Below are positions 16,122-55,302 of a stretch of DNA of 64,000 nucleotides, one piece after another (the first letter of the stretch is position 1; each line of letters starts with the position of its first letter). The stretch spans positions 268,551 through 332,550 of the forward strand of contig CP129473.1 in assembly GCA_030583745.1 (NCBI GenBank), read 5' to 3'. The position numbers and the translations under genes are program-made. Source of the stretch: Minisyncoccota bacterium (GTDB taxonomy: Bacteria; Patescibacteriota; Minisyncoccia; Phycocordibacterales; BOKC01). The notes below the pieces were generated by a model. That model saw nothing but the letters and a program-made list of their open reading frames with translations. It was not told the origin of the DNA and ran no database searches.

Positions 16122-16213
16122 GGTAAAGGATTTTTGCACATCAAAAAAACAGGGAGCTTGTAGCTTCCTGAACAGCAGAAACACAGCGAACAAACTATGA
16201 ACAGGAGATGGCG

Positions 16214-16825
16214 ATGGACTGGAAGAAAACGTGGTTCTGGATGGGTGTAACAGCCCTTGTGTTCGGGCTCTTCTGGCACATCTGGCACATTTTCGCTGGA
16301 GAAATTCCGGCGATTCGGGAACTTACTATGTCAGTTGGCGACGAAGAAGAGGAGAGCGCAATCTGGACTCTTCCCTTCGCAGTATCCCATTCGTGGGATA
16401 TGCTGGCGGCTCCCCTCTTCGTTCTTGCTTTCTCTTGGCTTCAGTCGAGAACAGAGGAGGGCACAGACGAAAATGACATACTGGTCGTCGGGCTGGTCTT
16501 CGGGCTGGGCCTCGGGCTGGTCGTCGGGCTGGTCTTCGGGCTGGTCTTCGGGCTGGTCTTCGGGCTGGGCCTCGGGCTGGGCCTCGGGCTGGTCTTCGGG
16601 CTGAGCTTCGGGCTGAGCTTCGGGCTGGGCCTCGGGCTGGTCTTCGGGCTGGGTTTCGGGCTGGGTTTCGGATTCAACTGCGGAATATTCTGGACGATGC
16701 CTCTGGGGGCTGTGTTCGGAGCATTAGTCATTCTGCCAAACACCGTCCTGCTCATTGTTCTCATGGGTTTGAGAGAAGCCATCCGAGGATTCTCCAACAG
16801 CAAGGCGGCTCCTTCAGAATGCTGA
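16214..16825 (+). CDS. High-GC membrane protein with 16 tandem GL(V/G/S)F tetrapeptide repeats
   Basis: RBS AGGAG 6 nt upstream of the ATG. Hydrophobic N- and C-terminal segments. Followed by a GC-rich terminator on the + strand. GC content is well above background. Confidence 0.55.
   Translation: MDWKKTWFWMGVTALVFGLFWHIWHIFAGEIPAIRELTMSVGDEEEESAIWTLPFAVSHSWDMLAAPLFVLAFSWLQSRTEEGTDENDILVVGLVFGLGLGLVVGLVFGLVFGLVFGLGLGLGLGLVFGLSFGLSFGLGLGLVFGLGFGLGFGFNCGIFWTMPLGAVFGALVILPNTVLLIVLMGLREAIRGFSNSKAAPSEC
16483..16675 (+). repeat. Tandem 12-nt repeat (GGKCYTCGGGCT) x ~16 inside the CDS
   Basis: Directly visible: ggtcttcgggct / gggcctcgggct / gagcttcgggct units in perfect register. Confidence 0.85.
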
Positions 16826-25114: not shown

Positions 25115-25285
25115 AAAAATCCCGATTTTAGCTATATTTTGAGACTACAGAAAAGAAGGAAAGAGAGAAAACTATTGGTTCCGACTGGCAGGGGGTTTCT
25201 TTTTCTTGCAACTTATTCCTTATTTGGTAATATCTCAACGGAAAAAAGGAGGGCTTGTGGCTTCTCCGAAAAAAAGGAGGCGAAG

Positions 25286-25867
25286 ATGGGAAAGTCCGGC
25301 TCTCTCACAATGGATATCACTTTCGTTGCTTTGATACTCTTTATTTTTGGCGCTCCTGTTTTTTGGTTGCTCCTTGACTCTCCACATCAAGTGGCAACGA
25401 GAAAACAACCAGACAAACCACCGGTACTTCAAGAACAACAGCAAATTCAGAAGCCGGAGCCGGAACAGACAGAAAACCCATGGCACCAGTGGGAGAAAGA
25501 GATGGTCAAGCTGCTCGGCGGCAAGATCACAAATCTCTCGCCCGAGGACATCGAACGGATGAATTCGGGGATTGATGTGAGCCACTGGCGCCTCGGCGAA
25601 GCCGGCGATTTGGTCAGATTCCAAGACGGCTTCGTCTGGGTGGTTGAATCAGTCTGGCCGGAAGGGTTGAATCTCATCACCTTCCGCTCGAGGGATACTC
25701 TCGGAATCTTCCTGCCGATCTTCAAGTTCCACGTTCTCTCCGACACGGCGGACTTGATCAGCCGCGGAGATCCGAGCAATCCGGAGGAAGAGTGGCGAGA
25801 AGGGGTGGAAGAGCTCTTCCGTCAACAGTTTGACTGGCCCGGAGAAATCCAAAAGCCGTCATCCTAG
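25286..25867 (+). CDS. Hypothetical membrane-anchored protein (high-GC ORFan)
   Basis: Strong RBS GGAGG. N-terminal TM, a Pro/Gln-rich linker and a C-terminal globular region. Followed by a GC-rich terminator. Confidence 0.5.
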   Translation: MGKSGSLTMDITFVALILFIFGAPVFWLLLDSPHQVATRKQPDKPPVLQEQQQIQKPEPEQTENPWHQWEKEMVKLLGGKITNLSPEDIERMNSGIDVSHWRLGEAGDLVRFQDGFVWVVESVWPEGLNLITFRSRDTLGIFLPIFKFHVLSDTADLISRGDPSNPEEEWREGVEELFRQQFDWPGEIQKPSS

Positions 25868-34067: not shown

Positions 34068-34979
34068 ATGCTCGGTAGTAAAATAGAAAAAAGAAAGGTT
34101 ATTGTAATAATAGGCCCAACCGCAACGGGAAAAAGTGGGCTTGCTGTTGAGTTAGCAAAAAAATTTAATGGAGAAATTATTTCTGCTGACTCGAGGCAGG
34201 TTTATAAGGGGCTCAACATCGGTACAGGAAAAATAACAAAAAGAGAAATGCAGGGTGTGCCCCACTATCTACTTGATGTCGCTAATCCGAAAAGAAGATT
34301 CACTGTCGCGGAATACAAAAAACTAGCAGAAAAAATACTACCATATATGGTAGTGCGAAATAAACTGCCGATAATTGTTGGTGGCACAGGATTTTATATT
34401 GAAGCTCTAGTTGACGATTTAAATTTGCCGGAAGTTCCTCCGAATTTAGGATTGCGAGAGAAATTAGAGAAAAAATCTACTGAAGAGCTTTTTAAAATTC
34501 TCCAAAAACTGGATCCAAAACGTGCAAAAAATATTGATTACAAAAACCCCCGCCGCCTCATCCGTGCTATTGAAATCGCCAAACATCTCGGAAAAATTCC
34601 CCCCTATACCCTAAACCCTAGTGGCTATACCCCACTTTTTATCGGTCTAGATTTACCTGATAAAAAACTCAAGCAAAAAATAAAAAAACGTCTGGAAGAG
34701 AGAATAAAAAAAGGGATGATTTCAGAAGCCAAAAAACTTCATAAAAACGGCTTGAGTTACAAAAGAATGGAAGAACTGGGATTAGAATATCGCTTCTTGG
34801 CTAAATATTTGAAAGGAGAAATAAGTAAAGAAGAAATGAAAAAACTTCTGGAAACCGCCATCTGGCAATACGCCAAACGCCAACGCACTTGGTTTAAGAG
34901 AGATAAGAGAATTAAATGGATAAAGCCGAACGGACAAAATAAAATCGAGAAAGAAATAGAAAGATTCCTAAAAATCTGA
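34068..34979 (+). CDS. miaA: tRNA dimethylallyltransferase
   Basis: P-loop GPTATGKS...ISADSRQVYKGLNIGTGK. Confidence 0.85.
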   Translation: MLGSKIEKRKVIVIIGPTATGKSGLAVELAKKFNGEIISADSRQVYKGLNIGTGKITKREMQGVPHYLLDVANPKRRFTVAEYKKLAEKILPYMVVRNKLPIIVGGTGFYIEALVDDLNLPEVPPNLGLREKLEKKSTEELFKILQKLDPKRAKNIDYKNPRRLIRAIEIAKHLGKIPPYTLNPSGYTPLFIGLDLPDKKLKQKIKKRLEERIKKGMISEAKKLHKNGLSYKRMEELGLEYRFLAKYLKGEISKEEMKKLLETAIWQYAKRQRTWFKRDKRIKWIKPNGQNKIEKEIERFLKI

Positions 34980-35106
34980 GTTCTTTCATTTACCCATTCG
35001 TACGAATAGGTAAATGAAAAACAAACTGGATTAAAAATCAAAAAGAAATAGAGGGTTAAAAAAGAGGCGGGTCTCTTTTTTAAATAAAGACATCACCAAT
35101 TCTGAT

Positions 35107-35892
35107 TTGATATACTTAAACATGATGAGTTTTGAAGGACCAAAATTTAACACCGAGCCCAATAAATCTGAACAAGAACCCTTAAGCGGTGATTTTTTGA
35201 AGCAGCAAATTCGTCTTCCGGAAGCAGAATGGGATGAAAGGTTTAGAAAATTAGTTACAAGAAAGATAAAAGAGAAGAAGGATAGAGAATCTAAAGAACC
35301 AGAAGAATCTCCGGAAGTTCTTCGTGAAGAATCATACAGACGTTATTTAAAGGTATTAAATTTGGATGAAGAATTATTAAGGGGAAAAAAGATATTAGAT
35401 TTTGGATCTGGTGAAGGTGAGTTTGTAAAATATCTTATAGATAAAGAAATTACTCAAGAAGCATACGGGATTGATGAGGACCTGGATCAAAATACAGTTG
35501 AAGAAGAATTTCAAAATCATTTCTTTCAGGGTGACTTCAGAGACGATCTTCCAGTAAAAGATGCAGACTACATTGTTTCTGTAGGCGCTATGAACGCGGT
35601 TTGGACAGATGAAGATGTCAGAGATGTAAAACGTATGGTTGACAAAACCCTTGCCTCTCTTAAAAAGAATGGGGAAATAAGAATAGCTGGTATAGCGGAA
35701 CCCGCTAAGGCAAACCCTATCGAACTTGAGGGTCTCGATACTACCTTAAAGAGATGGCGCGAATTACTTAAAGATATATCTGAAAGTCAAGGAATAGAAT
35801 GCAGACTTGAACCACAAGATATCGAGCTTATGGGTGAAGACAATCATATTGCATTGCAATATGTGTTGGTTATAAAAAGAAAGGAAAATTAA
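35107..35892 (+). CDS. Class I SAM-dependent methyltransferase-like protein
   Basis: Motif I KILDFGSGEGEF. Acidic N-terminal extension. Confidence 0.55.
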   Translation: MIYLNMMSFEGPKFNTEPNKSEQEPLSGDFLKQQIRLPEAEWDERFRKLVTRKIKEKKDRESKEPEESPEVLREESYRRYLKVLNLDEELLRGKKILDFGSGEGEFVKYLIDKEITQEAYGIDEDLDQNTVEEEFQNHFFQGDFRDDLPVKDADYIVSVGAMNAVWTDEDVRDVKRMVDKTLASLKKNGEIRIAGIAEPAKANPIELEGLDTTLKRWRELLKDISESQGIECRLEPQDIELMGEDNHIALQYVLVIKRKEN

Positions 35893-35894
35893 TT

Positions 35895-36368
35895 TTATTT
35901 AAAATCATCCCGAATTTTCATCCAAATTTTCCCAACCATATTCTCTCCATCCCCTTCTGGACCAATACCCCAGAAGTTATCAACTGGTGAATTTTCTATA
36001 ATTTCCTTGTTACCTGTTTTCTTCAATATTTCTCGTACATCTTTGTGCTGTTCGGCTTTGGCTTTTAATATTTCTTCCATAACAGAAACTTTTCTGTCGT
36101 GCCAGTCACTTGGTTGGTTTGATTTATTTGCATCAGAGATCTCTTTTACAAGATGCGGACTTTTTGCTTCTAAGATTTTATCGGCAATTTCAGCATCGGT
36201 TTCAGAAAATTTTTTCCATTGAAAAGCATGCTCGGCGGTCGAAAATTCTTTATCCCAAATATTTATTACGTGTGCTGAAAAATTATCCAGCGGATGAAAT
36301 GCCGGAGTAAAAAAGTAAACAGCATTATCTGTCTCTTTATTTAAATCTTTATTAGATTTTGGATACAT
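35895..36368 (-). CDS. NADAR/YbiA-family (DUF1768) protein
   Basis: FSNFS-like start, EHAFQWKKF, DNFWGIGPEGDGENMVGKIWMKIR. Internal ATG start avoids overlap with the upstream gene. Confidence 0.6.
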   Translation of the reverse strand: MYPKSNKDLNKETDNAVYFFTPAFHPLDNFSAHVINIWDKEFSTAEHAFQWKKFSETDAEIADKILEAKSPHLVKEISDANKSNQPSDWHDRKVSVMEEILKAKAEQHKDVREILKKTGNKEIIENSPVDNFWGIGPEGDGENMVGKIWMKIRDDFK

Positions 36369-36393
36369 GATACATACCAAGCGATGAAAATTT

Positions 36394-36945
36394 TTATTTC
36401 CTATAACCCTCAAGGATCTTGGACCATTTTTCGTAATTTTCTCTAGCAATTTCTTTTCGCTTTTTTGAACTAATACGATTAAACATCCAGTCTAATTTTT
36501 CTTTTACCTCTTCATATCCTTCTATCGCGGCTTTTTCATTTACAAACAATTCAGCATTAGTTTCAAAAAAGCTCACCGAATCTGCATCCATAAGAGCATT
36601 CTGTTCTTCATCGCCACCAACTTCATGCTTACTTATTAAATGCCTAACAGTTTTGATAACATCTTCAGAGGATTTTTGAGATTTCAAAAACTTAGCCATA
36701 ATCTCAGCGCCTTTCTCTTGGTGGACTCTTAAAAATTCCTTATCAAGATAATTTTTTAAATTATTTTTAGTTTTTTCATCTCGAAAAGATCGTTCAATAT
36801 CATGACTATAAGCAGCAATTTTATGAGCTTCGTTTGCTTCCGGCAAAAATCTTTCAAGCCAAAATACTGTTCTCTCAAAATGAGGTTTCTGCTTCCACTG
36901 AAATGATTTGTCCACATACTCAATTGTTTTTGAAAAAAGATCCAT
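36394..36945 (-). CDS. Hypothetical protein, HD-domain-like
   Basis: AAYSHDIER motif. Helical protein with no further assignment. Confidence 0.4.
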   Translation of the reverse strand: MDLFSKTIEYVDKSFQWKQKPHFERTVFWLERFLPEANEAHKIAAYSHDIERSFRDEKTKNNLKNYLDKEFLRVHQEKGAEIMAKFLKSQKSSEDVIKTVRHLISKHEVGGDEEQNALMDADSVSFFETNAELFVNEKAAIEGYEEVKEKLDWMFNRISSKKRKEIARENYEKWSKILEGYRK

Positions 36946-36963
36946 ATTTAATAGTTTTTATTT

Positions 36964-37036
36964 TGCGGGTCCAGCAGGACTTGAACCTGCAGTCCGGGAT
37001 TTGGAGTCCCGTGGTTTACCAATTAACCGATGGACC
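36964..37036 (-). tRNA. tRNA-Trp (anticodon CCA)
   Basis: Reverse complement folds as GGGTCCA...anticodon loop CTCCAAA...T-loop TTCAAGT...TGGACCC-G. Confidence 0.85.
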
Positions 37037-37679
37037 CTTTCATATACTCTCTGGCTATAGCCAATAAATCTTGAGCCAGACGAGCATCATAATATCGAAT
37101 ATTAGCACAACCTTGATAATTTTTCCTTACCCTCTTTCCTCCATTATTTTTCTTATAGGATTTCATAAACTGACCTTGAGGAATCTTTGTTATTCTTGAC
37201 CAGAAAGCTTTCTGTGTTTTTTCACTATGATAATTATGTAGATGAATACAAACTCTGAATTTTTTCTCGTTTAAAACGAAAGAAGCTCTTAAAAGTTTTA
37301 GAAAAGTAGAAATCAAATTAGGGTCTGAATTGATAAAACCAAAATATGAATCATTTTTTACCCCTTCACACCAATAAATAACAGCGCATATAACCTTTTT
37401 TGATTCTTTGTCTAGATCTACTACTTTTAAAATATCTAGAGCTTTTTGTTTTGATTCATCCAGGCGCGCTCTTTTCTTTGCTCTAAGAACTTCTTGGGAG
37501 GCAATTTGTCCTCTTGTATATTTTTTTCTTAACAACTCTTTCGCTTCATCAGATAATTCTACGTCCCTTACCCATAAAGATACAGAGCTTTTCGAAACAT
37601 TTAAGTTATCCGAAATTTCTTTAAGTGAAAATCCTTTTCCCCTCAACTGCACCGCTTTGTGCCTTTCTTTTAATTTCAT
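37023..37679 (-). CDS. HTH-domain protein, possibly LAGLIDADG-like homing-endonuclease fold
   Basis: N-terminal sigma-70 region-4-like HTH (GFSLKEISDNLNVSKSSVSLWVRD). Central AVIYWCEGVK resembles a degenerate LAGLIDADG helix. The 3' end overlaps tRNA-Trp by 14 nt. Confidence 0.4.
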   Translation of the reverse strand: MKLKERHKAVQLRGKGFSLKEISDNLNVSKSSVSLWVRDVELSDEAKELLRKKYTRGQIASQEVLRAKKRARLDESKQKALDILKVVDLDKESKKVICAVIYWCEGVKNDSYFGFINSDPNLISTFLKLLRASFVLNEKKFRVCIHLHNYHSEKTQKAFWSRITKIPQGQFMKSYKKNNGGKRVRKNYQGCANIRYYDARLAQDLLAIAREYMKGSIG

Positions 37680-37798
37680 ACTCTGAACCTACTAGTTAGT
37701 TCATATTAACTAATTATAACATAATAGATAATACCAAAAAGAGCGATAATTCTCTATCACCCCCCTATTGGCTATTGGCTAAACCCTATACCCTATCC

Positions 37799-40079: not shown

Positions 40080-40646
40080 TCAGCCACGCCTGTCGAAGAT
40101 CTTGACAACCTTCTTCTGCTCCGAGTTCCACTCCCAGCGTTGGCTGAGGTTGTCCTCGTTGTGCAGACGACTCATGGCGAGGTCGAGCTCGGCGATGGCG
40201 AAACTGATCGCGCGATCGCTGAACGGCTGTACCACTCCTTCGTCGGCCGGGCAAGGCTCGAACTTCCAGCCACTTGCGGTGCGAATGACCGAGTTACACC
40301 CGAACTCCGAGTACTCTGGGTGCCGGCCGACCAGTTCGTGATTGCCGCAGTAGAACACGCGATCCCACTTGCCATCGTTGTCGTAGTCGTGCCCTGTGAT
40401 CCCGACGTAGCTCGGACTGTCGACAAGCCTCAGATGAACCAGTCGACGGAAACCGTAGCCATGATCGGCTTCGTCGATCTCCACGTTGTAGGCGATGTTC
40501 TCCGACTGGAGCTCTCCGTGATAGAGATTCCAGGTCACGAGATGCTCGCCCCGCTCGTCGATGACCGCCGTGTAGATCATGGCACCCACCGCGACGACGA
40601 GCGCGATGGCGGCCAGGCCCAAGGCCAGATTGTTTCGGTTGCGCAT
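40080..40646 (-). CDS. Hypothetical secreted/membrane-anchored protein (high-GC, foreign-looking)
   Basis: GGAGGT RBS 7 nt before the ATG. N-terminal hydrophobic anchor. Markedly GC-rich. No known domain. Confidence 0.55.
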   Translation of the reverse strand: MRNRNNLALGLAAIALVVAVGAMIYTAVIDERGEHLVTWNLYHGELQSENIAYNVEIDEADHGYGFRRLVHLRLVDSPSYVGITGHDYDNDGKWDRVFYCGNHELVGRHPEYSEFGCNSVIRTASGWKFEPCPADEGVVQPFSDRAISFAIAELDLAMSRLHNEDNLSQRWEWNSEQKKVVKIFDRRG

Positions 40647-40678
40647 GGCATACCTCCTATCGTTTGGAATGTGCTGGC

Positions 40679-40699
40679 GATGAGTCACCATGACTCATC
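40679..40699. promoter_or_regulatory. Perfect 10-bp-arm palindrome GATGAGTCAC-c-ATGACTCATC upstream of the high-GC gene
   Basis: Seen in the sequence ~35-55 nt upstream of the start codon. Geometry is operator-like. Confidence 0.35.
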
Positions 40700-40906: not shown

Positions 40907-40993
40907 TGGTGCGCCGGGTAGGATTCGAACCTACGTAGCCCTAAGGGCGACAGATTTACAGTCTGTTGCGATTGACCACTCCGCCACCGACGC
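40907..40993 (-). tRNA. tRNA-Tyr (anticodon GTA), CCA encoded
   Basis: Reverse complement: GCGTCGG...anticodon loop CTGTAAA...long variable arm...GGTTCGAATCC...CCGGCGCACCA. Confidence 0.85.
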
Positions 40994-47493: not shown

Positions 47494-47565
47494 GGTGGCG
47501 TAGACAAGTGGTAAGTCAAGAGTCTGCAAAACTCTTATGCGGCGGTTCGATTCCGCCCGCCACCT
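47494..47565 (+). tRNA. tRNA-Cys (anticodon GCA)
   Basis: Acceptor GGTGGCG/CGCCACC, anticodon stem AGAGT/ACTCT with loop CTGCAAA, T-arm GGCGG-TTCGATT-CCGCC. Confidence 0.8.
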
Positions 47566-47570
47566 CATGT

Positions 47571-47652
47571 GCCCGGGTGGCGTAATTGGTAGCCGCAATC
47601 GACTTAAGATCGATCGCCGTAAGGCATGCGAGTTCGAGTCTCGCCCCGGGCA
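47571..47652 (+). tRNA. tRNA-Leu (anticodon TAA)
   Basis: Acceptor GCCCGGG/CCCGGGC, anticodon loop CTTAAGA, long variable arm. Confidence 0.85.
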
Positions 47653-47654
47653 TC

Positions 47655-47770
47655 AGACCGCCCATAGCTGTCTTGGTAGATATGAAGTTAGGTAACCGCT
47701 ATAGCTGTCTTGGTAGATATGAAGTTAGATGACCGCCCATAGCTGTTTTGGTAGATATGAAGTTAGATGA
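47655..47770 (+). repeat. Three tandem ~38-bp copies of the 5' end of tRNA-Lys fused to a common 22-nt tail
   Basis: The unit (at)gaccgcccatagctgtcttggtagatatgaagttag occurs three times. The first 14-16 nt equal the 5' end of the intact tRNA-Lys that follows. Confidence 0.75.
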
Positions 47771-47843
47771 CCGCCCATAGCTCAGTTGGCAGAGCAGTCG
47801 CCTCTTAAGCGAACGGTCGTAGGTTCAAATCCTACTGGGCGGA
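47771..47843 (+). tRNA. tRNA-Lys (anticodon CTT)
   Basis: Acceptor CCGCCCA/TGGGCGG, D-arm GCTC-AGTTGGCA-GAGC, anticodon loop CTCTTAA, T-arm GTAGG-TTCAAAT-CCTAC. Confidence 0.7.
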
Positions 47844-47883
47844 TAGCCATGATTTAGAGTTTAGAAATTAGAAATTAAGTTTT

Positions 47884-47965
47884 GGGCGAGTGGCGTAATT
47901 GGTAGCCGCGCTGCGCTTAGGACGCAGTGGAGTAATCCGTGGAGGTTCGAGTCCTCTCTCGCCCA
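47884..47965 (+). tRNA. tRNA-Leu (anticodon TAG)
   Basis: Acceptor GGGCGAG/CTCGCCC, anticodon stem CTGCG/CGCAG with loop CTTAGGA, long variable arm. Confidence 0.85.
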
Positions 47966-47977
47966 TAAAATATCAAA

Positions 47978-48010
47978 AAAAAAGAAGGCCACGCGAGGTG
48001 CGTGGCCTTT
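47978..48010. terminator. Bidirectional rho-independent terminator at the tRNA-cluster / island boundary
   Basis: A9-GGCCACGC-gaggt-GCGTGGCC-TTT. Confidence 0.7.
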
Positions 48011-48035
48011 AGGGTTACGTTGTTGCTTCAGGAGG

Positions 48036-48613
48036 TTACGAACCGCCGGACCTGGAGGTGGCACCGGAGTTGGAGTCGGCATTTCCACCTGCTCCGCCCT
48101 GTCCCGTGGCCGTGGCAGACGACCCACCTCCTTCCTGTGTCACGTTCGTCCTCGCGGGGCGAAGCACGTATGCACCACCCACAATTCCTGCCGGCATTGC
48201 GACAGACTCCAGGATGCTCCGAGAATTAGCGTCCGAAGCGCCGAGATGCCAAGACTCCCCTGTAAGTTCGTTGAGAAGGTGGCTGTCGAAGCGCTTCAGT
48301 CCCGGAGAAAGGAGACCAGCCGGGGAATTGCTCTCCACCGTCTGATGCCACAAACTCCAATGTCGAACAACTGGGATCATCATCTGAGACGTGGTTTGAG
48401 ACATGCCCTGAGACATGCCTTGGACGTCGGCGTAGTTTTGGAGAGTGTCCGGGTTCGAGTCGTTGTTGGTGTTGTTGTGGGCCATGCCCCTGGCTTCTGC
48501 CAGGTCCACGGCAGAGAAAAGCTCCACCGGACGATGAGCTGTGACCGTAGTGGAACATCCACTCACGACGACAGTCACGATCAGTCCGAACAGACAGACA
48601 ACAATCTTCATCA
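48036..48613 (-). CDS. Putative lipoprotein with Gly/Ser-rich C-terminus (high-GC)
   Basis: RBS AAGGGAG. Signal peptide ending in lipobox LVVSGC. Start set at the MMKIVV ATG. Confidence 0.55.
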
Positions 48614-48652
48614 TCACTGATCTCCCTTTCTTTTGTTCTGTTGATTCTCTTT

Positions 48653-49414
48653 TCAACTCCACACGATGTGGATTCTGAATGGTGGAGGCCATCTCCGCCA
48701 CATACCTTCTACGAAAAAAATGAAGCCCTCGTCAAACTCACGAATCGGCACGTCTTTGAAGATCAGTTTTTCTTCGGGAAAGTTGTCGTGAGTAAGTACC
48801 ACCATTTTTGCCCTCCGGTCATTTAGGGTCGGTGGTGACTGAGAAGAAAGTGTTTCGGGCTTCACCTTTTCATTCAGCCGGTTTTCTAGACGACTGACAG
48901 CTGAGTTGACCTCGGCGATTTCTTGCCGAAGCTTCTCCTGCTCTGCCCGGTCGCCTTGGCCGGCAACGCTTAGAGCAAAGACGTCGCTAAGTTTAGTGTT
49001 GATGTCTTGTAGTGTGCCGGTGAGAGCCGAGAGATTTTCCCGAATTTCTCCGAGAGAATCCTCGACGCTTCCCTGCTGACCTTGGAGTTGCGAGAACTCC
49101 AACGCCAGCTGATTGACCCTGATCGTGAGATCCTGAACGGACTTCGCGATCAGGTCTTCTTCCGGTTCCGGCTCAACAGCCAGAGCTTTGACTTCTTCGG
49201 ACTTCTGCTCTACTTGATCTTCTTCCGGTTTCTCCTCTCTTTCTGTTTCCCCCTCCGTCACTTCGGACTTCTTCTCGTCCTCCGATTTGGACGCGGTTGC
49301 TGACTCCGCAACCTTCTGATTCGCCGACTGGTCAAAATCCGGGGCATTAACATACCCCAAAACAGCGACACAGAGCGCCACAAGCGCTCCAAAAACCCGA
49401 GTGAAATCCCTCAT
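48653..49414 (-). CDS. Secreted acidic coiled-coil protein (high-GC)
   Basis: Signal peptide, a Glu/Lys-rich region and heptad-like segments. RBS AGAGGGG upstream. Confidence 0.55.
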   Translation of the reverse strand: MRDFTRVFGALVALCVAVLGYVNAPDFDQSANQKVAESATASKSEDEKKSEVTEGETEREEKPEEDQVEQKSEEVKALAVEPEPEEDLIAKSVQDLTIRVNQLALEFSQLQGQQGSVEDSLGEIRENLSALTGTLQDINTKLSDVFALSVAGQGDRAEQEKLRQEIAEVNSAVSRLENRLNEKVKPETLSSQSPPTLNDRRAKMVVLTHDNFPEEKLIFKDVPIREFDEGFIFFVEGMWRRWPPPFRIHIVWS

Positions 49415-49669
49415 TTTTCCCCTCTTTTTTTCTCTTTCTTGTGTTAGTTTGATTCAAACTTCCGGTACGCCCAGAAGCCTGATTTATGCAACAACGTCAA
49501 TGTCCATCCAATAAAGAGTATGCGCCTTTGTTCATAAAAGTCAATAGACAAAAATTTGACTTTCATAAAAACATGATATACTATTGTAAGCAGTAGTTCC
49601 TTGACGTGAGGAATTTATACACACAGATTCAGATTTGCCATAACAACGGCAAGAAAAAAGGAGAGAATC

Positions 49670-50932
49670 ATGGAAAGTGTCGTGTGGTGGTTGGATCTGA
49701 TTGGTAAGCTAACCCTTGTGATCATAACCTTTCTACTCCCTCTTTGGTTCATTCTTCTGGCTAGGTGGTTAGCCAAAATTGGCGAACAAATCCCGTACCT
49801 GCAGTTCTTCACAGTCGTCAACGAGGGAGAAGCAAAAACAATAACAGTCAACGGAAAGTTTGACAGAGCTATCATGTCATTCACTGGTTACGCTTTCAGG
49901 TGGCAGGTCTTCTCTAGAGAAGAGGAAATTGACTTTACACCTGACGAACTTAGGTGGGCCAAGGAAAGACTGACAGAAGAGAATTCAACATTCAGTTCCC
50001 AACCGAAAAGACAGCAAGAATCGTTGAGCAGAGACTGGCTCAAGAGGGAAGCTGTCGGGGAGCCAGGGCCCTGGGATGTCATCCGTCTATCAGAAAACCT
50101 AGAAATTCGCAGAGGTCAACTCATTCTTCTCTCTAGTTTACCCTTTATAGGCAAATTGGTCGGTGGTCTTCGCTGGGTGGGAATCCTGCCCGGAATCTCT
50201 CACAGAGTCTATCAGATGCCCCGCTTTGCTTGGGCATCTGTCGAATACCGAAAGGATGAGCAAGGAAATCCTACCCACGACAGGGTTGTCGTGCCCAAGG
50301 AAATGTCGAGCTACGAAGTAGTGTTTGTCAAGAGAGATGTCTATCCTGTCATCCTTCGACCAGCAATTGTCGATGAGGGTGTGCAAATAAACCTTGTAGT
50401 ACTCCTGCAAATCTGCAGCAGAAACCCCTTCAAGACCATGCATCGTATTGAGCACTGGTTTGAATCTGTCTCCAACAGAGTGCAAACTAGGTTGAGAGAG
50501 TTGGTTGGCCGAAGGGGGCTTAAAGAAGTCTACGGCAGTGGACCGCAACCCCTACTTGCCGAGGCGCTCTTACGCGAACTTCAGGACATCATTACAGATG
50601 TAAGGATTAGATTCGGAATCCAGATTGACGCTATAGAAATCTTCTCTGCTGAATTCGCTCGAAATACCGACAACGACATCTACATACTCCCCTTCAAGTC
50701 AGAACAGGAGGCACAAGGTATCAAGATCATCGCGAAGGCACGAGAGGAGGAGGCTAGGTTGGTGTTGCGGGCAACAGAACAGTATGGCGGAAGAGAAGCT
50801 GTAGAAACTCGACTCCTGACTGGACCGGACTCCAAGGTAACTACGGTTGTCCAGAAAGGCGCTATTAACGTAGCTCTTCCCCCCTCGTCTCCACCCACCC
50901 CGCCGGCAACCGGCGGTGGGACGGGAACCTGA
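49670..50932 (+). CDS. Membrane-anchored SPFH/band-7 (stomatin/prohibitin/flotillin-like) domain protein (high-GC)
   Basis: N-terminal TM. Central region resembles the SPFH fold (…VQINLVVLLQICSRNPFKTMHRIEH…GIQIDAIEIFSAEF…AQGIKIIAKAREEEARLV…). Pro/Gly-rich tail. Confidence 0.55.
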   Translation: MESVVWWLDLIGKLTLVIITFLLPLWFILLARWLAKIGEQIPYLQFFTVVNEGEAKTITVNGKFDRAIMSFTGYAFRWQVFSREEEIDFTPDELRWAKERLTEENSTFSSQPKRQQESLSRDWLKREAVGEPGPWDVIRLSENLEIRRGQLILLSSLPFIGKLVGGLRWVGILPGISHRVYQMPRFAWASVEYRKDEQGNPTHDRVVVPKEMSSYEVVFVKRDVYPVILRPAIVDEGVQINLVVLLQICSRNPFKTMHRIEHWFESVSNRVQTRLRELVGRRGLKEVYGSGPQPLLAEALLRELQDIITDVRIRFGIQIDAIEIFSAEFARNTDNDIYILPFKSEQEAQGIKIIAKAREEEARLVLRATEQYGGREAVETRLLTGPDSKVTTVVQKGAINVALPPSSPPTPPATGGGTGT

Positions 50933-50954
50933 ATCCTCACTTCACGCATCGCTT

Positions 50955-50994
50955 CTCGCCCCGACGCACTCGCGTCGGGGCGTTTCTTTTTATT
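50955..50994 (+). terminator. Rho-independent terminator
   Basis: CGCCCCGACGC-act-cGCGTCGGGGCG followed by TTTCTTTTTATT. Confidence 0.75.
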
Positions 50995-51114
50995 GACTTA
51001 ACAAGTAAAACATGATAACATTTATAACGGAAAGTTCGTTGCCAAAAACATCCACTTTGTCAGTGTAGGCAAAGTAGAATCGTCGAAACATGTGCAAGAA
51101 GAAAGGAGTGCGAG

Positions 51115-52428
51115 ATGAACATCACCCTTGCGGTTCTCGGAGTTTTGTTTTTCATCTCGATGCTCATAGTCGGGATGGAAAGATTCGTAAACTGGAAACA
51201 TCCTGGAAAACAGGGCGATCGGAGCAAAGGAAAAGGAAGGAAAAGGAAGTCGGATCCCAAACGCCTGAACAGAAAAGTTCTGATTGGTAAGATTGCTGTC
51301 TATATTGTCTTCTTTGGGCCAGCATTATTTGTTTCAATGGCCATATTCTTCCAACTCTTCCACGAGAGACCCGATCGAGAAACAGCCTTCAGTGTGTGGG
51401 CTGTCGTTGGCTTGGCAGTTTTATTTACTCTCATCATCTTTGTTGCGGTGTTAATAACACAACGACAGGGGAAATCGGCAATCAAGTGGGCAATGATCGC
51501 AACTATGATAGCCCTACCAATCTACCTTGTTTGGTACTTCCTAGATATCCACACAACAACTTGGATTGTGATGCTGTACGTAGTAAAAATCCAAGTCGCA
51601 ACTGAAGAACTCGAGTCAGAACACAGGAAAGTCCTGTGGTGGATCACAACAACCATCATCGCCCTTGTGGTCTTCTTCGCATTCTGGTGGCTCTCCAAAC
51701 TCTTCAAAAAGAAAGTGAGGTCAGAAGACGGAACACGTCGTGCAGGTGTTTTCGAAAACACCTGCAGACGGGTCCTAAAATACGACGTAGGTTCAACCAC
51801 GCTCTTCCGGTTCTTCGCAACCGGACTTGTGACGCTTGTCATCATGATCGGCGTCCACTTCCTCGCACAAATCTACTGGCCGGATAGCTGGAGCGGGTGG
51901 CGAAGAAGCGGGGTTGAGTTGTTCTGGATTCCAAATCTGGCAATCCTCCTGTTCTTCCCGCTAATCATCACGTTCCGCCGCTGGGGTTGGCTGCCGGCGT
52001 TAGCCATTGTCGGCATTACAGTGCTTGGTGTCCTCTCCAGCTTGGACTGGCTATCAAGCACGACGTCGACCGACAATGGCAGACACAGATCGACGGCAAC
52101 CCAACCGTCTCAACCACAAGAGTGGCTCTCTGTCGGAGAACTGCGAGGAAAACAGAGCGTCACCACTCTACGAAACCTCTACTACGACGAATACCAGCTG
52201 TCGTACGACATCTGGTATCCCGACAGCAGGGGGAAGCGTGGAGAAGCGAAGCTCAAAAGGTGCATCGAGGACGGCAAGTACTACGGCACCTTTGAATACC
52301 GAAACCCAAGAGGAGAGGGCGATGTCTGGCTGGAAGAGATTCCAGATAGGCCCGGGCACTTCAGGGGTCAGTCCTGGAGTGATTACACTAACGGCGAAAG
52401 GGTCTGGTTCGAGATCAGACCCAAGTAG
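51115..52428 (+). CDS. Polytopic membrane protein (~9 TM) with ~100-aa C-terminal soluble domain (high-GC)
   Basis: RBS AAAGGAG. Multiple hydrophobic helices rich in Trp. No known family recognised. Confidence 0.55.
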   Translation: MNITLAVLGVLFFISMLIVGMERFVNWKHPGKQGDRSKGKGRKRKSDPKRLNRKVLIGKIAVYIVFFGPALFVSMAIFFQLFHERPDRETAFSVWAVVGLAVLFTLIIFVAVLITQRQGKSAIKWAMIATMIALPIYLVWYFLDIHTTTWIVMLYVVKIQVATEELESEHRKVLWWITTTIIALVVFFAFWWLSKLFKKKVRSEDGTRRAGVFENTCRRVLKYDVGSTTLFRFFATGLVTLVIMIGVHFLAQIYWPDSWSGWRRSGVELFWIPNLAILLFFPLIITFRRWGWLPALAIVGITVLGVLSSLDWLSSTTSTDNGRHRSTATQPSQPQEWLSVGELRGKQSVTTLRNLYYDEYQLSYDIWYPDSRGKRGEAKLKRCIEDGKYYGTFEYRNPRGEGDVWLEEIPDRPGHFRGQSWSDYTNGERVWFEIRPK

Positions 52429-52447
52429 GCAACGATAACTACACGCA

Positions 52448-52477
52448 AGCGGCGAGCATCATGCTCGCCGCTTTTTC
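52448..52477 (+). terminator. Rho-independent terminator
   Basis: AGCGGCGAGCAT-c-ATGCTCGCCGCT followed by TTTTT. Confidence 0.75.
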
Positions 52478-52509
52478 AATTCTATATTTTTTCGCACCAG
52501 ACGTTTGAT

Positions 52510-52770
52510 TTAAGGAATTATGCCTCCCGGCGCTGAAATTCCGAAAGTTCCGAGAATAATTTTGATTATCCCAAAAACGGCCACCATAATGAAAAGTCCG
52601 ATAATCCCCCAGAGCATATGTTTCTTACCGGTCGCCCTTTTTTCTTCACTTTCCATTCCAGCAACAAACTGCAAAATACCCCAGAGAAAAACAAGACTGG
52701 CAGTAGCCAAAAGCAGAATAATCAGCGGATTAATAATGACCTGATTGACTTTGTAAATAATTTCGATCAT
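52510..52770 (-). CDS. Small pilin-like membrane protein, TrbC/VirB2-like (paralog 1 of 7)
   Basis: Shares the core …FLWG…FV.AG.E(E/D)KR..GK..M(I/L)WGII… with the six ORFs upstream. Two hydrophobic helices flank a charged loop. Confidence 0.5.
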   Translation of the reverse strand: MIEIIYKVNQVIINPLIILLLATASLVFLWGILQFVAGMESEEKRATGKKHMLWGIIGLFIMVAVFGIIKIILGTFGISAPGGIIP

Positions 52771-52820
52771 TTGTTTTCAAGGCAAGAACCCCGCCAAAAG
52801 CGGGGTTCTTCAGAAAAATC

Positions 52821-53174
52821 TTAAAGTCCTGGAATCGCTGGAGGAGCGGGCGGTTGTCTTTCCGGAAAAATAGTAATCAGAAGGTTCACAATTCCCCAAA
52901 TCGCAACCATCACAAAGAAAGCAATAATACCCCAAATCATGATTTGCTTACCTTTTCCTCTTTTTTCTTCGTCACCGGCAGAAGCCACAAACATCATCAA
53001 GCCCCAAAGGAAGAAGACCAAAGCTAAAGCGATAATGACCCCTGTAACAACATTCAAGAATCCCTTGAAAGCGTTCAAGAAATTACCAACTTCGCCGAAT
53101 TGGGCATTTAAGACAGCAACCGGAAGAATAAAAAGAAATCCGGCCGGCAAAACCCATGCTAATAATTTTTTCAT
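52821..53174 (-). CDS. Small pilin-like membrane protein (paralog 2 of 7)
   Basis: Signal peptide. VFFLWGLMMFVASAGDEEKRGKGKQIMIWGIIAFFVMVAIWGIV. Confidence 0.5.
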   Translation of the reverse strand: MKKLLAWVLPAGFLFILPVAVLNAQFGEVGNFLNAFKGFLNVVTGVIIALALVFFLWGLMMFVASAGDEEKRGKGKQIMIWGIIAFFVMVAIWGIVNLLITIFPERQPPAPPAIPGL

Positions 53175-53269
53175 TTATTTTGTGAATAAAAAAACAACTT
53201 TTAAATTTTAACGACCTTTTAAATTTTAATACGATTAAACATTTTATTCAACCGCAGTTTTGCACAAAA

Positions 53270-53641
53270 TTACCTTGGCAAAACCGGAGGAATAAAAATC
53301 GGCGGTAGAGGTGCCCCAGTCGGTAGAAAAATTGAAGCTAAAAGTCGAACTATACCCCAGATTGCGATCATCACTGCAAGAACAATAATCCCCCAGAGCA
53401 TCTTTTGTTTCCCTTCAGACCTTTTGTCCTCGCTTCCGGCATTCAATACAAACAAGGCCATTCCCCAGAGAAAGAAAATAAGCGCTAAAGCGATAATGAC
53501 CTTGACCAGAATATTTGCAAGAGCCAAAAAATTAACTAGAAAAACAACAAACGGACCATAGTGGTCAAAACCGGGTATTCCAAGAAGATACTGGCAAACA
53601 TCTTTTGGTATTGCGCCCCAATTGCAAAGAATTTGAATCAT
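53270..53641 (-). CDS. Small pilin-like membrane protein (paralog 3 of 7)
   Basis: IFFLWGMALFVLNAGSEDKRSEGKQKMLWGIIVLAVMIAIWGIV. Confidence 0.5.
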   Translation of the reverse strand: MIQILCNWGAIPKDVCQYLLGIPGFDHYGPFVVFLVNFLALANILVKVIIALALIFFLWGMALFVLNAGSEDKRSEGKQKMLWGIIVLAVMIAIWGIVRLLASIFLPTGAPLPPIFIPPVLPR

Positions 53642-53687
53642 ATTTATAAATTATACGATAATTTTAAAAATTATTCTGACTTTTAAT

Positions 53688-54026
53688 CTATCTAGGGATG
53701 GGCGACAGTCCGAATCCTAATTGCAAAGCCCACATAATCCCGCCAATACCAACCATTATCACCAAAGCTACGATCCCCCACAACATTCTTTGCCTCCCTT
53801 CCCTTCTCTTGTCTTCATTGCCGGAATTCAAAATAAAAACCGCAGCGCCCCAAAGAAAAAACGCTAAAGCAAAACCCATAATGGTAATAAGTAAAAGATA
53901 AAGTGGTATCCAAGCCCAAGCCAGAAGAGACTGAATGGTCGGATTTTGAGCCGAAACAAGAGCGGGCGAAAACAAAAAAAATATCGCCAAGAATTTCAAG
54001 TGTTTATTTGTAATAGAATATTTCAT
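53688..54026 (-). CDS. Small pilin-like membrane protein (paralog 4 of 7)
   Basis: Signal peptide. AFFLWGAAVFILNSGNEDKRREGRQRMLWGIVALVIMVGIGGIM. Confidence 0.5.
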   Translation of the reverse strand: MKYSITNKHLKFLAIFFLFSPALVSAQNPTIQSLLAWAWIPLYLLLITIMGFALAFFLWGAAVFILNSGNEDKRREGRQRMLWGIVALVIMVGIGGIMWALQLGFGLSPIPR

Positions 54027-54388
54027 TTTGTTCTTAATTGGGGTAAAAATTTAAATTCGGAACCAAGAACGCTGGCGTATAGAATCCCAACCAAAGCCCA
54101 AGTTGAAACGGCAATAAAAAGCGCGATAATGCCCCAAATCATCAAAGTCTTTCCACTCTTTCTCTTGTCCTCTTCATCGGCTTTCAAGATAAAAATCGCC
54201 AATCCCCAAAAAAATATTACAAAAGAAATAAAGATTACGAGGGGCGCGGCTAAAGACAATATGTTTAAAACTATATCCGCAAATTCCTGAAAATTTCTTG
54301 GGGTTCTCGGTTGAAGTTGCGCGCTCGCAATATGTGGCAAAAAAAACAAAGTTGACAGAATAAGTGAAAATTTTGAAAACTTCTTCAT
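54023..54388 (-). CDS. Small pilin-like membrane protein (paralog 5 of 7)
   Basis: Signal peptide. IFFWGLAIFILKADEEDKRKSGKTLMIWGIIALFIAV. Confidence 0.5.
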   Translation of the reverse strand: MKKFSKFSLILSTLFFLPHIASAQLQPRTPRNFQEFADIVLNILSLAAPLVIFISFVIFFWGLAIFILKADEEDKRKSGKTLMIWGIIALFIAVSTWALVGILYASVLGSEFKFLPQLRTK

Positions 54389-54389
54389 T

Positions 54390-54812
54390 TTATTTTTTTG
54401 GACATTCTAATCCCGGAATATCAGAAATCAAACAAATTGTATTTTTTATACCCTCGGAAATCACCAACGCGCCGAGTAAAACAGCAATACCAACAACCGT
54501 CCAAGTCAGAGATTTCTTGGCGGTCTTCAACTTGTCTTCATTGCCCTGCGCCGTAACAAAAAGAAAGCCGGTAAAGATCAAAGCCAAGACCGCTATCACA
54601 GCGCCAATCGGCAAAACAATATCTCTCAAAATCAAGTTAAGAAGACCAATAAGAGTCATTTTTGGGTCCTTGAACGGCGACTCTATGCCGGGAGGATTTG
54701 CGGGCTCGGTTATGTTGGCCAAAACCGGATTTACGAAAAATAAAATTAGAAAAATGGAAAACAAACAAAGAGAAACTGCCGAAAAAAAATATTTACTTTT
54801 CATTTTCAACAT
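54390..54812 (-). CDS. Small pilin-like membrane protein (divergent paralog 6 of 7)
   Basis: Signal peptide. LIFTGFLFVTAQGNEDKLKTAKKSLTWTVVGIAVLLGALV. Extra C-terminal Cys pair. Confidence 0.45.
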   Translation of the reverse strand: MLKMKSKYFFSAVSLCLFSIFLILFFVNPVLANITEPANPPGIESPFKDPKMTLIGLLNLILRDIVLPIGAVIAVLALIFTGFLFVTAQGNEDKLKTAKKSLTWTVVGIAVLLGALVISEGIKNTICLISDIPGLECPKK

Positions 54813-54825
54813 AATTATATCACGA

Positions 54826-55302
54826 TTATTTGTTCGGTCTTAAGAGCTGAAGAAGTGAATCTTCCCGTAACAGAGTTGAAATAATAAGCCAGACAATAAG
54901 CCAAGCCGCCAAGACAAGAAAAAGACCAATCGCCACGTTTTTAAAAATCTCGTGGGCTTTCTTGATTTTGTCTTCACTGCCCGCTGCTGTCAAATATAGA
55001 AATCCGGCATAAGCAAAAGCGATGGCGGAAAGAGGTAGAGAAATTATAATCAAAAAATTCATTACGTTTTGTGCCAAAATCAAAAGCTCCGTCCAACCGC
55101 AACCTTCCGGCGGACAGTTTGGAACCAATCCCCCGCCACCCTGCTGTGATTGCTCGCTTTGCGGTTCAGATGGGGGTGGAGGTGTTGATTCGCCAACTCC
55201 GTCTCCAGCATCGGGTAATATTTGCCCTGTCGCTAAGAAAGGCAAAGGGGTAAAAACAAAAACCAGAGTAAAAATTATAGAAAAAAATAAAAACTTCTTC
55301 AT
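54826..55302 (-). CDS. Small pilin-like membrane protein (divergent paralog 7 of 7) with Pro/Gln/Gly-rich N-region
   Basis: Signal peptide. AFAYAGFLYLTAAGSEDKIKKAHEIF…IGLFLVLAAWLIVWLI. Confidence 0.45.
   Translation of the reverse strand: MKKFLFFSIIFTLVFVFTPLPFLATGQILPDAGDGVGESTPPPPSEPQSEQSQQGGGGLVPNCPPEGCGWTELLILAQNVMNFLIIISLPLSAIAFAYAGFLYLTAAGSEDKIKKAHEIFKNVAIGLFLVLAAWLIVWLIISTLLREDSLLQLLRPNK

Follow-up and report, generated by a model that had tools for sequence, protein, structure and literature searches.

A probably ancestral, hypervariable SPFH gene locus beside a VirB2-like pilin array in Paceibacteria

Bacteria of the Candidate Phyla Radiation (CPR; Patescibacteria) are mostly uncultured episymbionts, and to our knowledge the molecules that decide their attachment to hosts, or their attack by phages, are essentially unknown. 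The classical partner of a stomatin-type SPFH gene is an NfeD gene, which encodes transmembrane (TM) helices and a small beta-barrel, and we know of no description of strain-level allele replacement for such pairs. Few loci have been shown to be essential in a cultured CPR bacterium, and VirB2-like pilin arrays belong to them; a survey of CPR genomes reports 441 arrays of 2 to 11 genes, the essential one of Ca. Southlakia epibionticum among them (bioRxiv 10.1101/2025.01.22.634366). Here we analyze a stretch of 64,000 nucleotides, called the window, from the metagenome-assembled genome (MAG) of a Candidatus Paceibacterota bacterium (GCA_030583745.1, contig CP129473.1 of 691,769 bp, positions 268,551 to 332,550), in which a GC-rich block at ~48011-52478 lies between a tRNA cluster and an array of VirB2-like pilin genes. 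The block, or island, holds four genes in two divergent pairs, g1 and g2 on the minus strand and g3 and g4 on the plus strand; g3 (locus tag QY304_01685) encodes an SPFH protein and g4 (QY304_01690) its putative membrane partner. The block is probably an ancestral, positionally fixed, hypervariable envelope locus of Paceibacteria, a replacement flexible island in kind and not an integrated element.

The window's seven-gene array is of the same kind as the CPR arrays in the survey, the text of which uses the term SPFH zero times and mentions no SPFH neighbor. VirB2 arrays in CPR are already known. What is new here is strain-level cassette replacement at the adjacent SPFH module: the pilins of the window are mostly invariant or nearly so between strains, whereas the module beside them varies. 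The SPFH gene and its partner are a fixed neighbor of the pilin array across Paceibacteria, yet they are the part that is replaced between near-identical strains.

Replacement flexible islands, such as the cell-wall island of Haloquadratum walsbyi (PMC4535781), the hypervariable regions of SAR11, and the O-antigen and capsule loci, have a fixed position and conserved flanks in common with the locus described here. The likeness extends to unalignable versions at >95% flank identity, to envelope products, to an atypical composition, and to assemblies that fragment at the edges. Unlike these islands, the present locus is tiny, with only four genes in 4.5 kb, and it encodes protein scaffolds rather than glycosyltransferases. 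Its cassette boundaries fall inside coding sequences, and the proteins are therefore chimeric, with conserved tails or C-terminal parts and variable bodies. Furthermore, whereas replacement flexible islands are usually AT-richer than the genome, this locus is GC-richer, and its slot is conserved over family-level distances.

Gene cassettes replaced between near-identical strains

The window was compared with a set of contigs, numbered as loci, which include three Logan contigs (L001-L003), an ENA contig (L004), and a GenBank metagenome contig (L010). By blastn, the flanks of sister strains L006 and L005 are 98.8% and 95.6% identical to the window. At the same position, between flanks that are >95% identical, L005, L006, and L010 carry gene versions that cannot be aligned with those of the window. 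Variable cassette 1 (48080..48868), which covers the body of g1 and the 3' end of g2, has no blastn match in L005 or L010 and is 97.7% identical in L006. It borders on conserved anchor A (48869..49613), consisting of the 5' part of g2 and the divergent promoter region, which is 94.7-97.7% identical in L005, L006, and L010. Variable cassette 2 (49614..50890, plus strand), with the 5' untranslated region and body of g3, finds no blastn match in any of the three, and the same is true of variable cassette 3 (51157..51631, plus strand), which holds g4 N-terminal codons ~15-170. Between the latter two lies conserved anchor B (50891..51156, plus strand), comprising the g3 tail TPPATGxGTGT, the g3 terminator, the g4 promoter, and the first 14 g4 codons. 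From 51632 onward, the C-terminal part of g4 and the flank are 95.6-99% identical in the sister strains. Identity to L005 and L006 is 88-90% in anchor B, versus 96-99% in the flanks, as expected for deeper coalescence beside variable cassettes.

The same boundaries are seen in the proteins. Residues 174-437 of g4 are 89-92% identical in the sister strains while residues 1-170 are unalignable, and at least three g4 N-terminal allele types exist. In g2, the N-terminal ~205 amino acids (aa) are conserved and the C-terminal ~50 aa are variable between strains. Three alleles of g3 were found, of 420, 507, and 511 aa, in which BLASTP detects only the C-terminal tail TPPATGxGTGT as a common part; the allele of the window is nearer to those of distant genomes (26-34% identity) than to those of the sister strains. 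A family hidden Markov model (HMM) still finds the 511-aa allele of L006, at 30 bits and in two collinear pieces around an insertion of ~230 aa, and Pfam weakly finds the 507-aa allele of L005, at 18 bits. Because these profiles still match, the g3 alleles probably represent SPFH lineages that split very long ago, and not genes without relationship. At g1, L005 and L010 carry an unrelated lipoprotein of 150-154 aa, which keeps only the tail ...ATS(R/K)SGGS.

Low-complexity C-terminal tails are thus kept by all alleles, TPPATG(G/S)GTGT in g3 (50918-50932) and ATS(R/K)SGGS in g1 (48036-48060). They may be mere recombination anchors, or they may be a shared sorting or modification signal.

L010 combines a left module of the L005 type with a right module of the L006 type, which shows that the two modules reassort. 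Three further samples contain the allele set of the window at 100% identity. Contigs from several metagenomes begin or end exactly at cassette edges, L003 corresponding to 49614-50983 and L011 starting from 51632, while L012 starts at 50984, the point of an IS30-like insertion. The ends of L003 suggest branch points of the assembly graph at the cassette edges, and such breaks are what coexisting alleles in one sample would produce, a hint that more than one allele may have been present. The IS30-like insertion itself is seen in L010 (4012-5071 of that contig), where ~1.06 kb encoding a 311-aa transposase (HTH_38 plus rve) lie between the g3 terminator and the g4 promoter; ~6 bp are duplicated at the junction, and the window has no copy.

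The conserved parts of the island genes have a ratio of nonsynonymous to synonymous substitution rates (dN/dS) of 0.53-0.98, versus 0.02-0.19 for most flanking genes. For two of the near-invariant pilins the ratio is 0.56-0.62, a value that comes from a handful of substitutions. Overall, the pilins are mostly invariant or nearly so between strains (dN of 0-0.011), except for pilin 1, with a dN of 0.020 versus L005. Within the window, the seven pilin paralogues are highly diverged from one another, and in L006 no gene is called for the first pilin, of 86 aa. As the locus has no reverse transcriptase, invertase, or long internal repeats, we reject programmed diversification there by a diversity-generating retroelement or a shufflon.

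Conserved position and base composition of the locus

Relatives of g3 were sought with a word-indexed search over 5.8 billion proteins and an exhaustive phmmer search over 1.84 billion representatives. The former returned one relative, of 26% identity, on L004; the latter returned 243 at an E value of ≤1e-3 and 74 at ≤1e-10, the best being 33-34% identical. Of the 20 best matches looked up, just two have an organism name, Candidatus Parcubacteria and Candidatus Yonathbacteria, both CPR. No match was found when the whole island was compared by blastn with phage and plasmid collections, or when IMG/VR was scanned with g2, g3, and g4, and homologues of g3 look confined to CPR. A scan of genome contigs with IF-2 for sister species gave only unrelated archaeal, Chloroflexi, and Chlorobi loci.

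Downstream of the g3 relative in L004 there follow a small TM protein, a T4SS_pilin array, a solute-binding protein, and GyrA, which is the right-hand neighborhood of the window. The contexts of seven further family members were fetched. All seven distant loci with downstream sequence have an SPFH gene, a small TM protein, a convergent pilin array, and a gene for a solute-binding protein (pilin adjacency is named in L004, L016, L017, L019, L020, and L021). GyrA comes next in the six whose contig extends to it, and L004 alone has no methyltransferase gene before it. L016 goes further: IF2-RbfA and the same four tRNAs, in the same order as in the window, lead there directly into the SPFH gene, the gene of its partner, and the pilin array. 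All four genes are present in sister strains L005, L006, and L010, in the same layout from the tRNAs to the pilin array, and L010 has the same four tRNAs. The sharing of this layout by distant relatives, in one case down to the tRNAs, indicates that g3-g4 has been at this site since before these lineages diverged. In contrast, the distant loci lack g1 and g2, which were apparently added in the lineage of the window.

The left flank of the locus is the conserved cluster of tRNA-Cys(GCA), tRNA-Leu(TAA), tRNA-Lys(CTT), and tRNA-Leu(TAG) at 47494..47966 on the plus strand (all tRNA calls are from ARAGORN). The island contains only four open reading frames, none of which has a recombinase, integrase, or transposase domain in Pfam or NCBIfam. 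The 25-nucleotide 3' end of the tRNA-Leu occurs once in the window at ≤3 mismatches, with no second copy, and no direct repeat flanks the island. Tandem copies of a 38-bp unit (3.4 copies, 91% identity) lie at 47656-47782, between tRNA-Leu(TAA) and tRNA-Lys, each opening with a copy of the first ~14 nucleotides of tRNA-Lys, GACCGCCCATAGCT. Logan contigs L001 and L002 break at this repeat; L010 lacks it, and there the two tRNAs are 3 nucleotides apart.

The compositional break at the block is real and amounts to ~10 points, with a GC content of 50.2% in 48011-52478 versus 39.9% in the rest of the window. A jump to ~60%, as had been claimed from reading the sequence, is not what we find, since 55-59% is reached only in the first ~500 bp. 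GC content at third codon positions (GC3) is 0.52-0.64 in g1-g4 versus 0.25-0.46 in background genes. Tetranucleotide usage of the island correlates with that of the rest of the window at r = 0.52, whereas 4.5-kb background chunks reach 0.87-0.94; the proposed check of windowed GC, GC3, and tetranucleotides therefore finds the island atypical in all three. The island is closer in tetranucleotide usage to the alternative cassettes (0.84), to g3/g4 of five distant genomes (0.78), and to three other GC-rich genes of the window (0.72) than to its own genome (0.52).

Across eight genomes, the composition of g3/g4 is decoupled from that of the resident genome. In the window, g3 (0.495) and g4 (0.502) exceed a background GC of 0.393 by 0.105. 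The excess is +0.080 both in L016 (background 0.421, g3 0.492, g4 0.509) and in L020 (0.452, 0.531, 0.532), +0.061 in L017 (0.494, 0.548, 0.561), +0.042 in L004 (0.486, 0.520, 0.536), and +0.024 in L019 (0.539, 0.567, 0.558). It vanishes in L021 (0.452, 0.452, 0.448; -0.002) and turns into a deficit in L022 (0.539, 0.483, 0.474; -0.060). The regression of g3/g4 GC (0.45-0.57) on background GC (0.39-0.54) has a slope of 0.25, with r = 0.34 (n = 8). The locus looks GC-rich here because the resident genome is AT-rich (~40% GC) and g3/g4 has a composition of its own.

Singletons polarized by majority were used to compare substitution rates in the conserved part of g4 with those in the flanks. Changes from A or T to G or C (W to S) occur at 2.3 times the rate of the flanks, and the reverse changes (S to W) at an equal rate, on small counts (22 versus 20). 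On these same counts, the implied equilibrium GC is 0.55 in the C-terminal part of g4 versus 0.32-0.35 in the flanks, and thus GC is being kept up there and is not decaying.

Predicted products and transcription units

The product of g3 (49670..50932, plus strand; 420 aa) matches Pfam Band_7 (PF01145) at 28.0 bits, with a gathering score of 23.6, and 63 of 76 family members match it as well. The family profile matches PH stomatin (8.5e-24), human stomatin (1e-13), and QmcA (4.5e-13); the alignment of the 76 sequences is too divergent for deriving search patterns. An AlphaFold2 (AF2) model made from this alignment has a predicted local distance difference test score (pLDDT) of 83.5 and a predicted template modeling score (pTM) of 0.73. 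It shows a TM helix at residues 2-40, an SPFH core, a long helix at 335-372, and C-terminal strands, followed by a tail rich in Pro, Thr, and Gly. Foldseek matches the model to stomatin, HflK/C, erlin, prohibitin, and flotillin at a probability of 1.0, and also to QmcA-YbbJ; isolated SPFH domains superpose on it with a TM-score of ~0.8 and a root mean square deviation of 2.1-2.5 Å. As the Pfam score, the family profile, and AF2 with Foldseek agree, g3 is a divergent stomatin-type SPFH protein. By analogy with solved relatives it is probably a scaffold, and the long helix and C-terminal strand that it has in common with them suggest an oligomeric membrane cage.

The gene g4 (51115..52428, plus strand) encodes a predicted polytopic membrane protein of 437 aa, with ~8-9 helices and a C-terminal beta-rich domain of ~100 aa by sequence and AF2 secondary structure. 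The AF2 model, built from a 4-sequence alignment, shows ~9 helices and then 7 strands, but at a pLDDT of 44.6 it is unusable. A sequence search of the PDB with g4 was negative. A co-oriented gene next to the SPFH gene is seen in all 8 distant loci as well as in the window and the sister strains. In six of the seven further family members (L016, L017, L019, L020, L021, and L022), an SPFH-like gene is followed by one for a TM protein of 166-279 aa, and in L004, L017, L019, L020, and L021 the two genes are 0-2 nucleotides apart or overlap by 4 nucleotides.

This arrangement recalls the SPFH-NfeD modules, namely Escherichia coli QmcA-YbbJ (PDB 8z5g), Pyrococcus PH1511/PH1510, and Bacillus subtilis FloT-NfeD2/YuaF. 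The predicted g3 shares with their SPFH members the TM anchor, SPFH core, long helix, and C-terminal strand, and as in those operons, the g3 family gene is always followed by a gene on the same strand for a small polytopic protein that is predicted to end in a beta-rich domain of ~100 aa. Unlike the NfeD partners, g4 has no detectable NfeD (PF01957) signature, the partners of different genomes are unalignable, and the window's g4 is served by a promoter and a terminator of its own. With the position and the predicted architecture of the NfeD partner in QmcA-YbbJ, g4 may have an NfeD-like role, which is a reasoned guess.

The remaining products carry fewer recognizable features. Gene g1 (48036..48614, minus strand) encodes a putative 192-aa lipoprotein with the lipobox VSGC and a Gly/Ser-rich C-terminal tail; it has no relative in Pfam, in NCBIfam, or, by sequence search, in the PDB. 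Gene g2 (48653..49414, minus strand) encodes a putative secreted or anchored protein of 253 aa with a signal sequence, an acidic region, and a coiled coil, and its matches in Pfam, NCBIfam, and PADLOC are coiled-coil noise only. Lipobox, signal sequence, and TM helices all place the g1-g4 products, by prediction, in the envelope or in an exposed location. Convergent with g4 are the seven VirB2-like pilin paralogues (52510..55302, minus strand). Pfam T4SS_pilin was run on the first two of these, and all seven are matched through precomputed hits on the identical contig L001.

An earlier note on this DNA, made from sequence alone, had anticipated much of this anatomy. The tRNA cluster, the two divergent gene pairs, the four protein types (a lipoprotein, an acidic coiled-coil protein, an SPFH protein, and a ~9-TM protein with a C-terminal domain), and a pilin array beginning next to the right edge all stand. 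Its SPFH/band-7 call for g3 agrees with Pfam, the family profile, and AF2 plus Foldseek, and its strong ribosome-binding sites are found, of the AGGAG type, before each of the four genes. The proposal of an envelope module scaffolded by an SPFH protein is supported as regards envelope products and a scaffold, while a cage function is suggested by analogy. Where the note gave each gene its own hairpin terminator, we find three strong terminators and not four. It had also taken the hairpin before the island as the terminator of tRNA-Leu(TAG). This hairpin (47985..48009, minus strand), GC-rich and followed by T9 on that strand and by only three T on the plus strand, is the intrinsic terminator of g2-g1; because of the T9 run, it ends the g1 transcript and does not primarily serve the tRNA. 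As no terminator separates g2 from g1, the two look like one operon.

The other two terminators lie on the plus strand, at 50957-50982 after g3 and at 52447..52473 after g4, where the latter forms the right edge of the GC-rich block. A promoter scan places the g4 promoter at 50993-51021 on the plus strand and finds that it resembles the divergent promoters. A palindrome had been noted between the divergent pairs. The sequence AAAGTCAA...TTGACTTT is present, but it consists of two back-to-back TTGACT -35 boxes of the divergent promoters, at 49544 (minus strand) and 49556 (plus strand).

Competing explanations and other variable genes

The core of the locus is the g3-g4 two-gene module, which across the clade is arranged tail-to-tail with the VirB2-like pilin array and to which the lineage of the window appears to have added the divergent g2-g1 operon. 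Alleles that are unalignable as DNA, and barely or not detectably similar as proteins, are swapped as cassettes within the population, and we propose that this happens by homologous recombination at short conserved anchors. The anchors would be the promoter region, the tail codons that g3 and g1 retain in all alleles, and the 3' two-thirds of g4, which are conserved. The left module (g1 plus the g2 C terminus) and the right module (g3 plus the g4 N terminus) reassort independently. The alleles would be imported repeatedly from a deep, Paceibacteria-wide pool, and the locus would be GC-rich in this 40%-GC genome because that pool keeps a composition of its own. The most likely driver would be negative frequency-dependent or diversifying selection on the envelope, exerted by phages or by host-surface recognition.

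Several points weigh against this reading of the block as an ancestral replacement locus. No donor of any allele was found, in large protein database searches that did not take in g1, g2, or the alternative g3 alleles, and each allele is so far seen only in this population. A pool common to the lineages is deduced from composition and not observed, the decoupling of GC rests on eight genomes only, and the function of the locus is deduced as well. Confinement to CPR draws on two organism names plus gene contexts. The equivalence of the proteins in the g4 position rests on position and architecture: the C-terminal domain of the window's g4 and five positional counterparts have no NfeD (PF01957) match at an E value of ≤5, an all-against-all phmmer comparison of eight such proteins finds similarity only among sister strains, and the modeled fold of g4 is, at its pLDDT, of no use here. 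Finally, g3-g4 and the pilins are convergent, separate transcription units, and their adjacency may be synteny only.

The most direct alternative, raised in the earlier note, is a genomic island of high-GC origin, for instance from an actinobacterial host, that entered at the tRNA cluster and has since degraded. Like tRNA-associated integrative islands, the block lies immediately 3' of a tRNA gene and has an atypical composition, with GC 10 points over background and a divergent tetranucleotide signature, and its genes are orphan-like. Unlike them, it has neither an integrase nor an att repeat, as the note itself had remarked and the domain scans and the search for the tRNA-Leu 3' end bear out; the degenerate copy of that 3' end, which was to be sought at the island's ends, does not exist in the window at ≤3 mismatches in 25 nucleotides. 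The block is present at the site in all relatives examined. The note had itself held that the same genes at the same place and with the same composition in relatives would make the block ancestral. Layout, place, and composition do recur in related genomes: L005, L006, and L010 have all four genes, while g3-g4 stands there in distant relatives, in L016 after the same tRNAs, which contradicts an insertion 3' of the cluster. The organism-named relatives are CPR, and confinement to CPR was what the note had named as fatal to transfer from a host; no phage, plasmid, or IMG/VR match was found, against an actinobacterial origin, and with an equilibrium GC of ~0.55 in the C-terminal part of g4 versus 0.32-0.35 in the flanks there is no decay toward host GC, against an old or degraded integration. 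We therefore hold a tRNA-targeted island to be very improbable. Still less credence goes to an artefact of assembly or binning, in which CPR DNA would have been joined to that of a higher-GC organism in a chimeric MAG. The abrupt change in composition would fit, as would the breaks of short-read contigs near the tandem repeat at tRNA-Lys and at the cassette edges, but L001 and L002, from two other samples, span both junctions at 100% identity, and the sister strains and L010 span tRNAs, island, and pilins. Because independent contigs cross both junctions and the allele set recurs in further samples, a chimera is in practice excluded.

Two further alternatives accept an old locus or a fixed site and differ in what has acted there. 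In one, the locus is ancestral and fast-evolving and its GC was raised in situ, whether through selection on GC3 or because a recombination hot spot underwent GC-biased gene conversion. The excess of W-to-S singletons in the C-terminal part of g4, with S-to-W changes equal to the flanks, speaks for it, and so do the three other GC-rich genes of the window, which likewise encode membrane proteins that evolve fast or have been replaced, for example 25283-25867. However, the singletons may be recombination imports and are few (22 versus 20), and g3/g4 lies 6 points below genome GC in L022 and equals it in L021. Since a force in one direction does not predict the deficit of L022, it is disfavored; we favor repeated import of alleles and regard in situ GC bias as possible, though unlikely. 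In the other, the site is a hotspot of anti-phage defense, and the cassettes are alternative defense systems with SPFH or membrane proteins as membrane-disrupting effectors or as sensors. Strain-level replacement at a fixed site beside tRNAs, the IS30-like insertion in L010, and the elevated dN/dS would all be in keeping with this. Yet PADLOC gives no credible match for the four proteins and the alternative alleles (E values of 1.8e-4 to 3.5e-3, coiled-coil or low-complexity noise), and the domain scans turned up no nuclease, ATPase, or protease and nothing else typical of an effector or sensor. The architecture is common to all alleles, and across the clade the g3 family has the same place beside the pilin array, unlike the mixed systems of defense islands. 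A defense hotspot thus seems improbable to us.

A bolder version of the replacement-locus reading, which we think quite unlikely though somewhat less so than defense, assigns it a machine. A stomatin-like cage and its partner would be the membrane platform of a VirB2-like pilus, or of an apparatus like a type IV secretion system, or else a surface determinant used with it. The module would then act in host range or as a phage receptor and be drawn from a pan-Paceibacteria pool, and other GC-rich orphan membrane genes would be of the same class. If true, GC-rich genes in low-GC Paceibacteria would flag a host-interface "variome." Short of this, the locus offers a testable candidate for a strain-specific envelope determinant, and the composition of g3/g4 gives a simple marker for finding similar loci. 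It also advises caution, as GC-rich patches beside tRNAs in CPR MAGs need not be host-derived islands.

Three single genes elsewhere in the window are as GC-rich as the island (16208-16825, 25139-25867, and 40080-40691; GC3 of 0.59-0.78), and their products are membrane or anchored proteins without known domains. The first (plus strand; 58% GC, GC3 of 0.70) encodes a membrane protein of 205 aa with a long (G-L-x-F/V) repeat, GLVFGLGLGLVVGLVFGL, and has no match in Pfam or NCBIfam; it lies ~0.8 kb downstream of a gene for a tyrosine recombinase (Phage_integrase; 14439-15398). The product encoded at 25283-25867 (plus strand), an anchored protein between RecR and TopA, can be compared with L013 (GCA_016860785.1), a very close relative in which most neighboring proteins are 98-100% identical to those of the window. 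Its orthologue there is 88% identical, with a dN/dS of 0.45 versus 0.04-0.19 for the neighbors. The gene is GC-rich (51-53%) and keeps 53% GC in L013.

The third gene, 40080-40691 (minus strand), is the most GC-rich of the window (59% GC, GC3 of 0.78). It lies near tRNA-Tyr (40907-40993), has its own GC-rich terminator, and encodes an anchored protein of ~190 aa whose family is not recognized. At this site, downstream of alanine racemase, L013 has a different GC-rich small membrane open reading frame and then a serine recombinase (resolvase) gene, and the site looks like a second replacement site. In the region 34068-37723, MiaA is 85% identical to its L013 counterpart while the genes upstream are 98-100% identical, and ~2.7 kb (34974-37723; 33-36% GC), with methyltransferase and HTH_23 genes, are without DNA counterpart in L013. 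A recombination boundary lies here, with an AT-rich variable segment that is the compositional opposite of the GC-rich cassettes.

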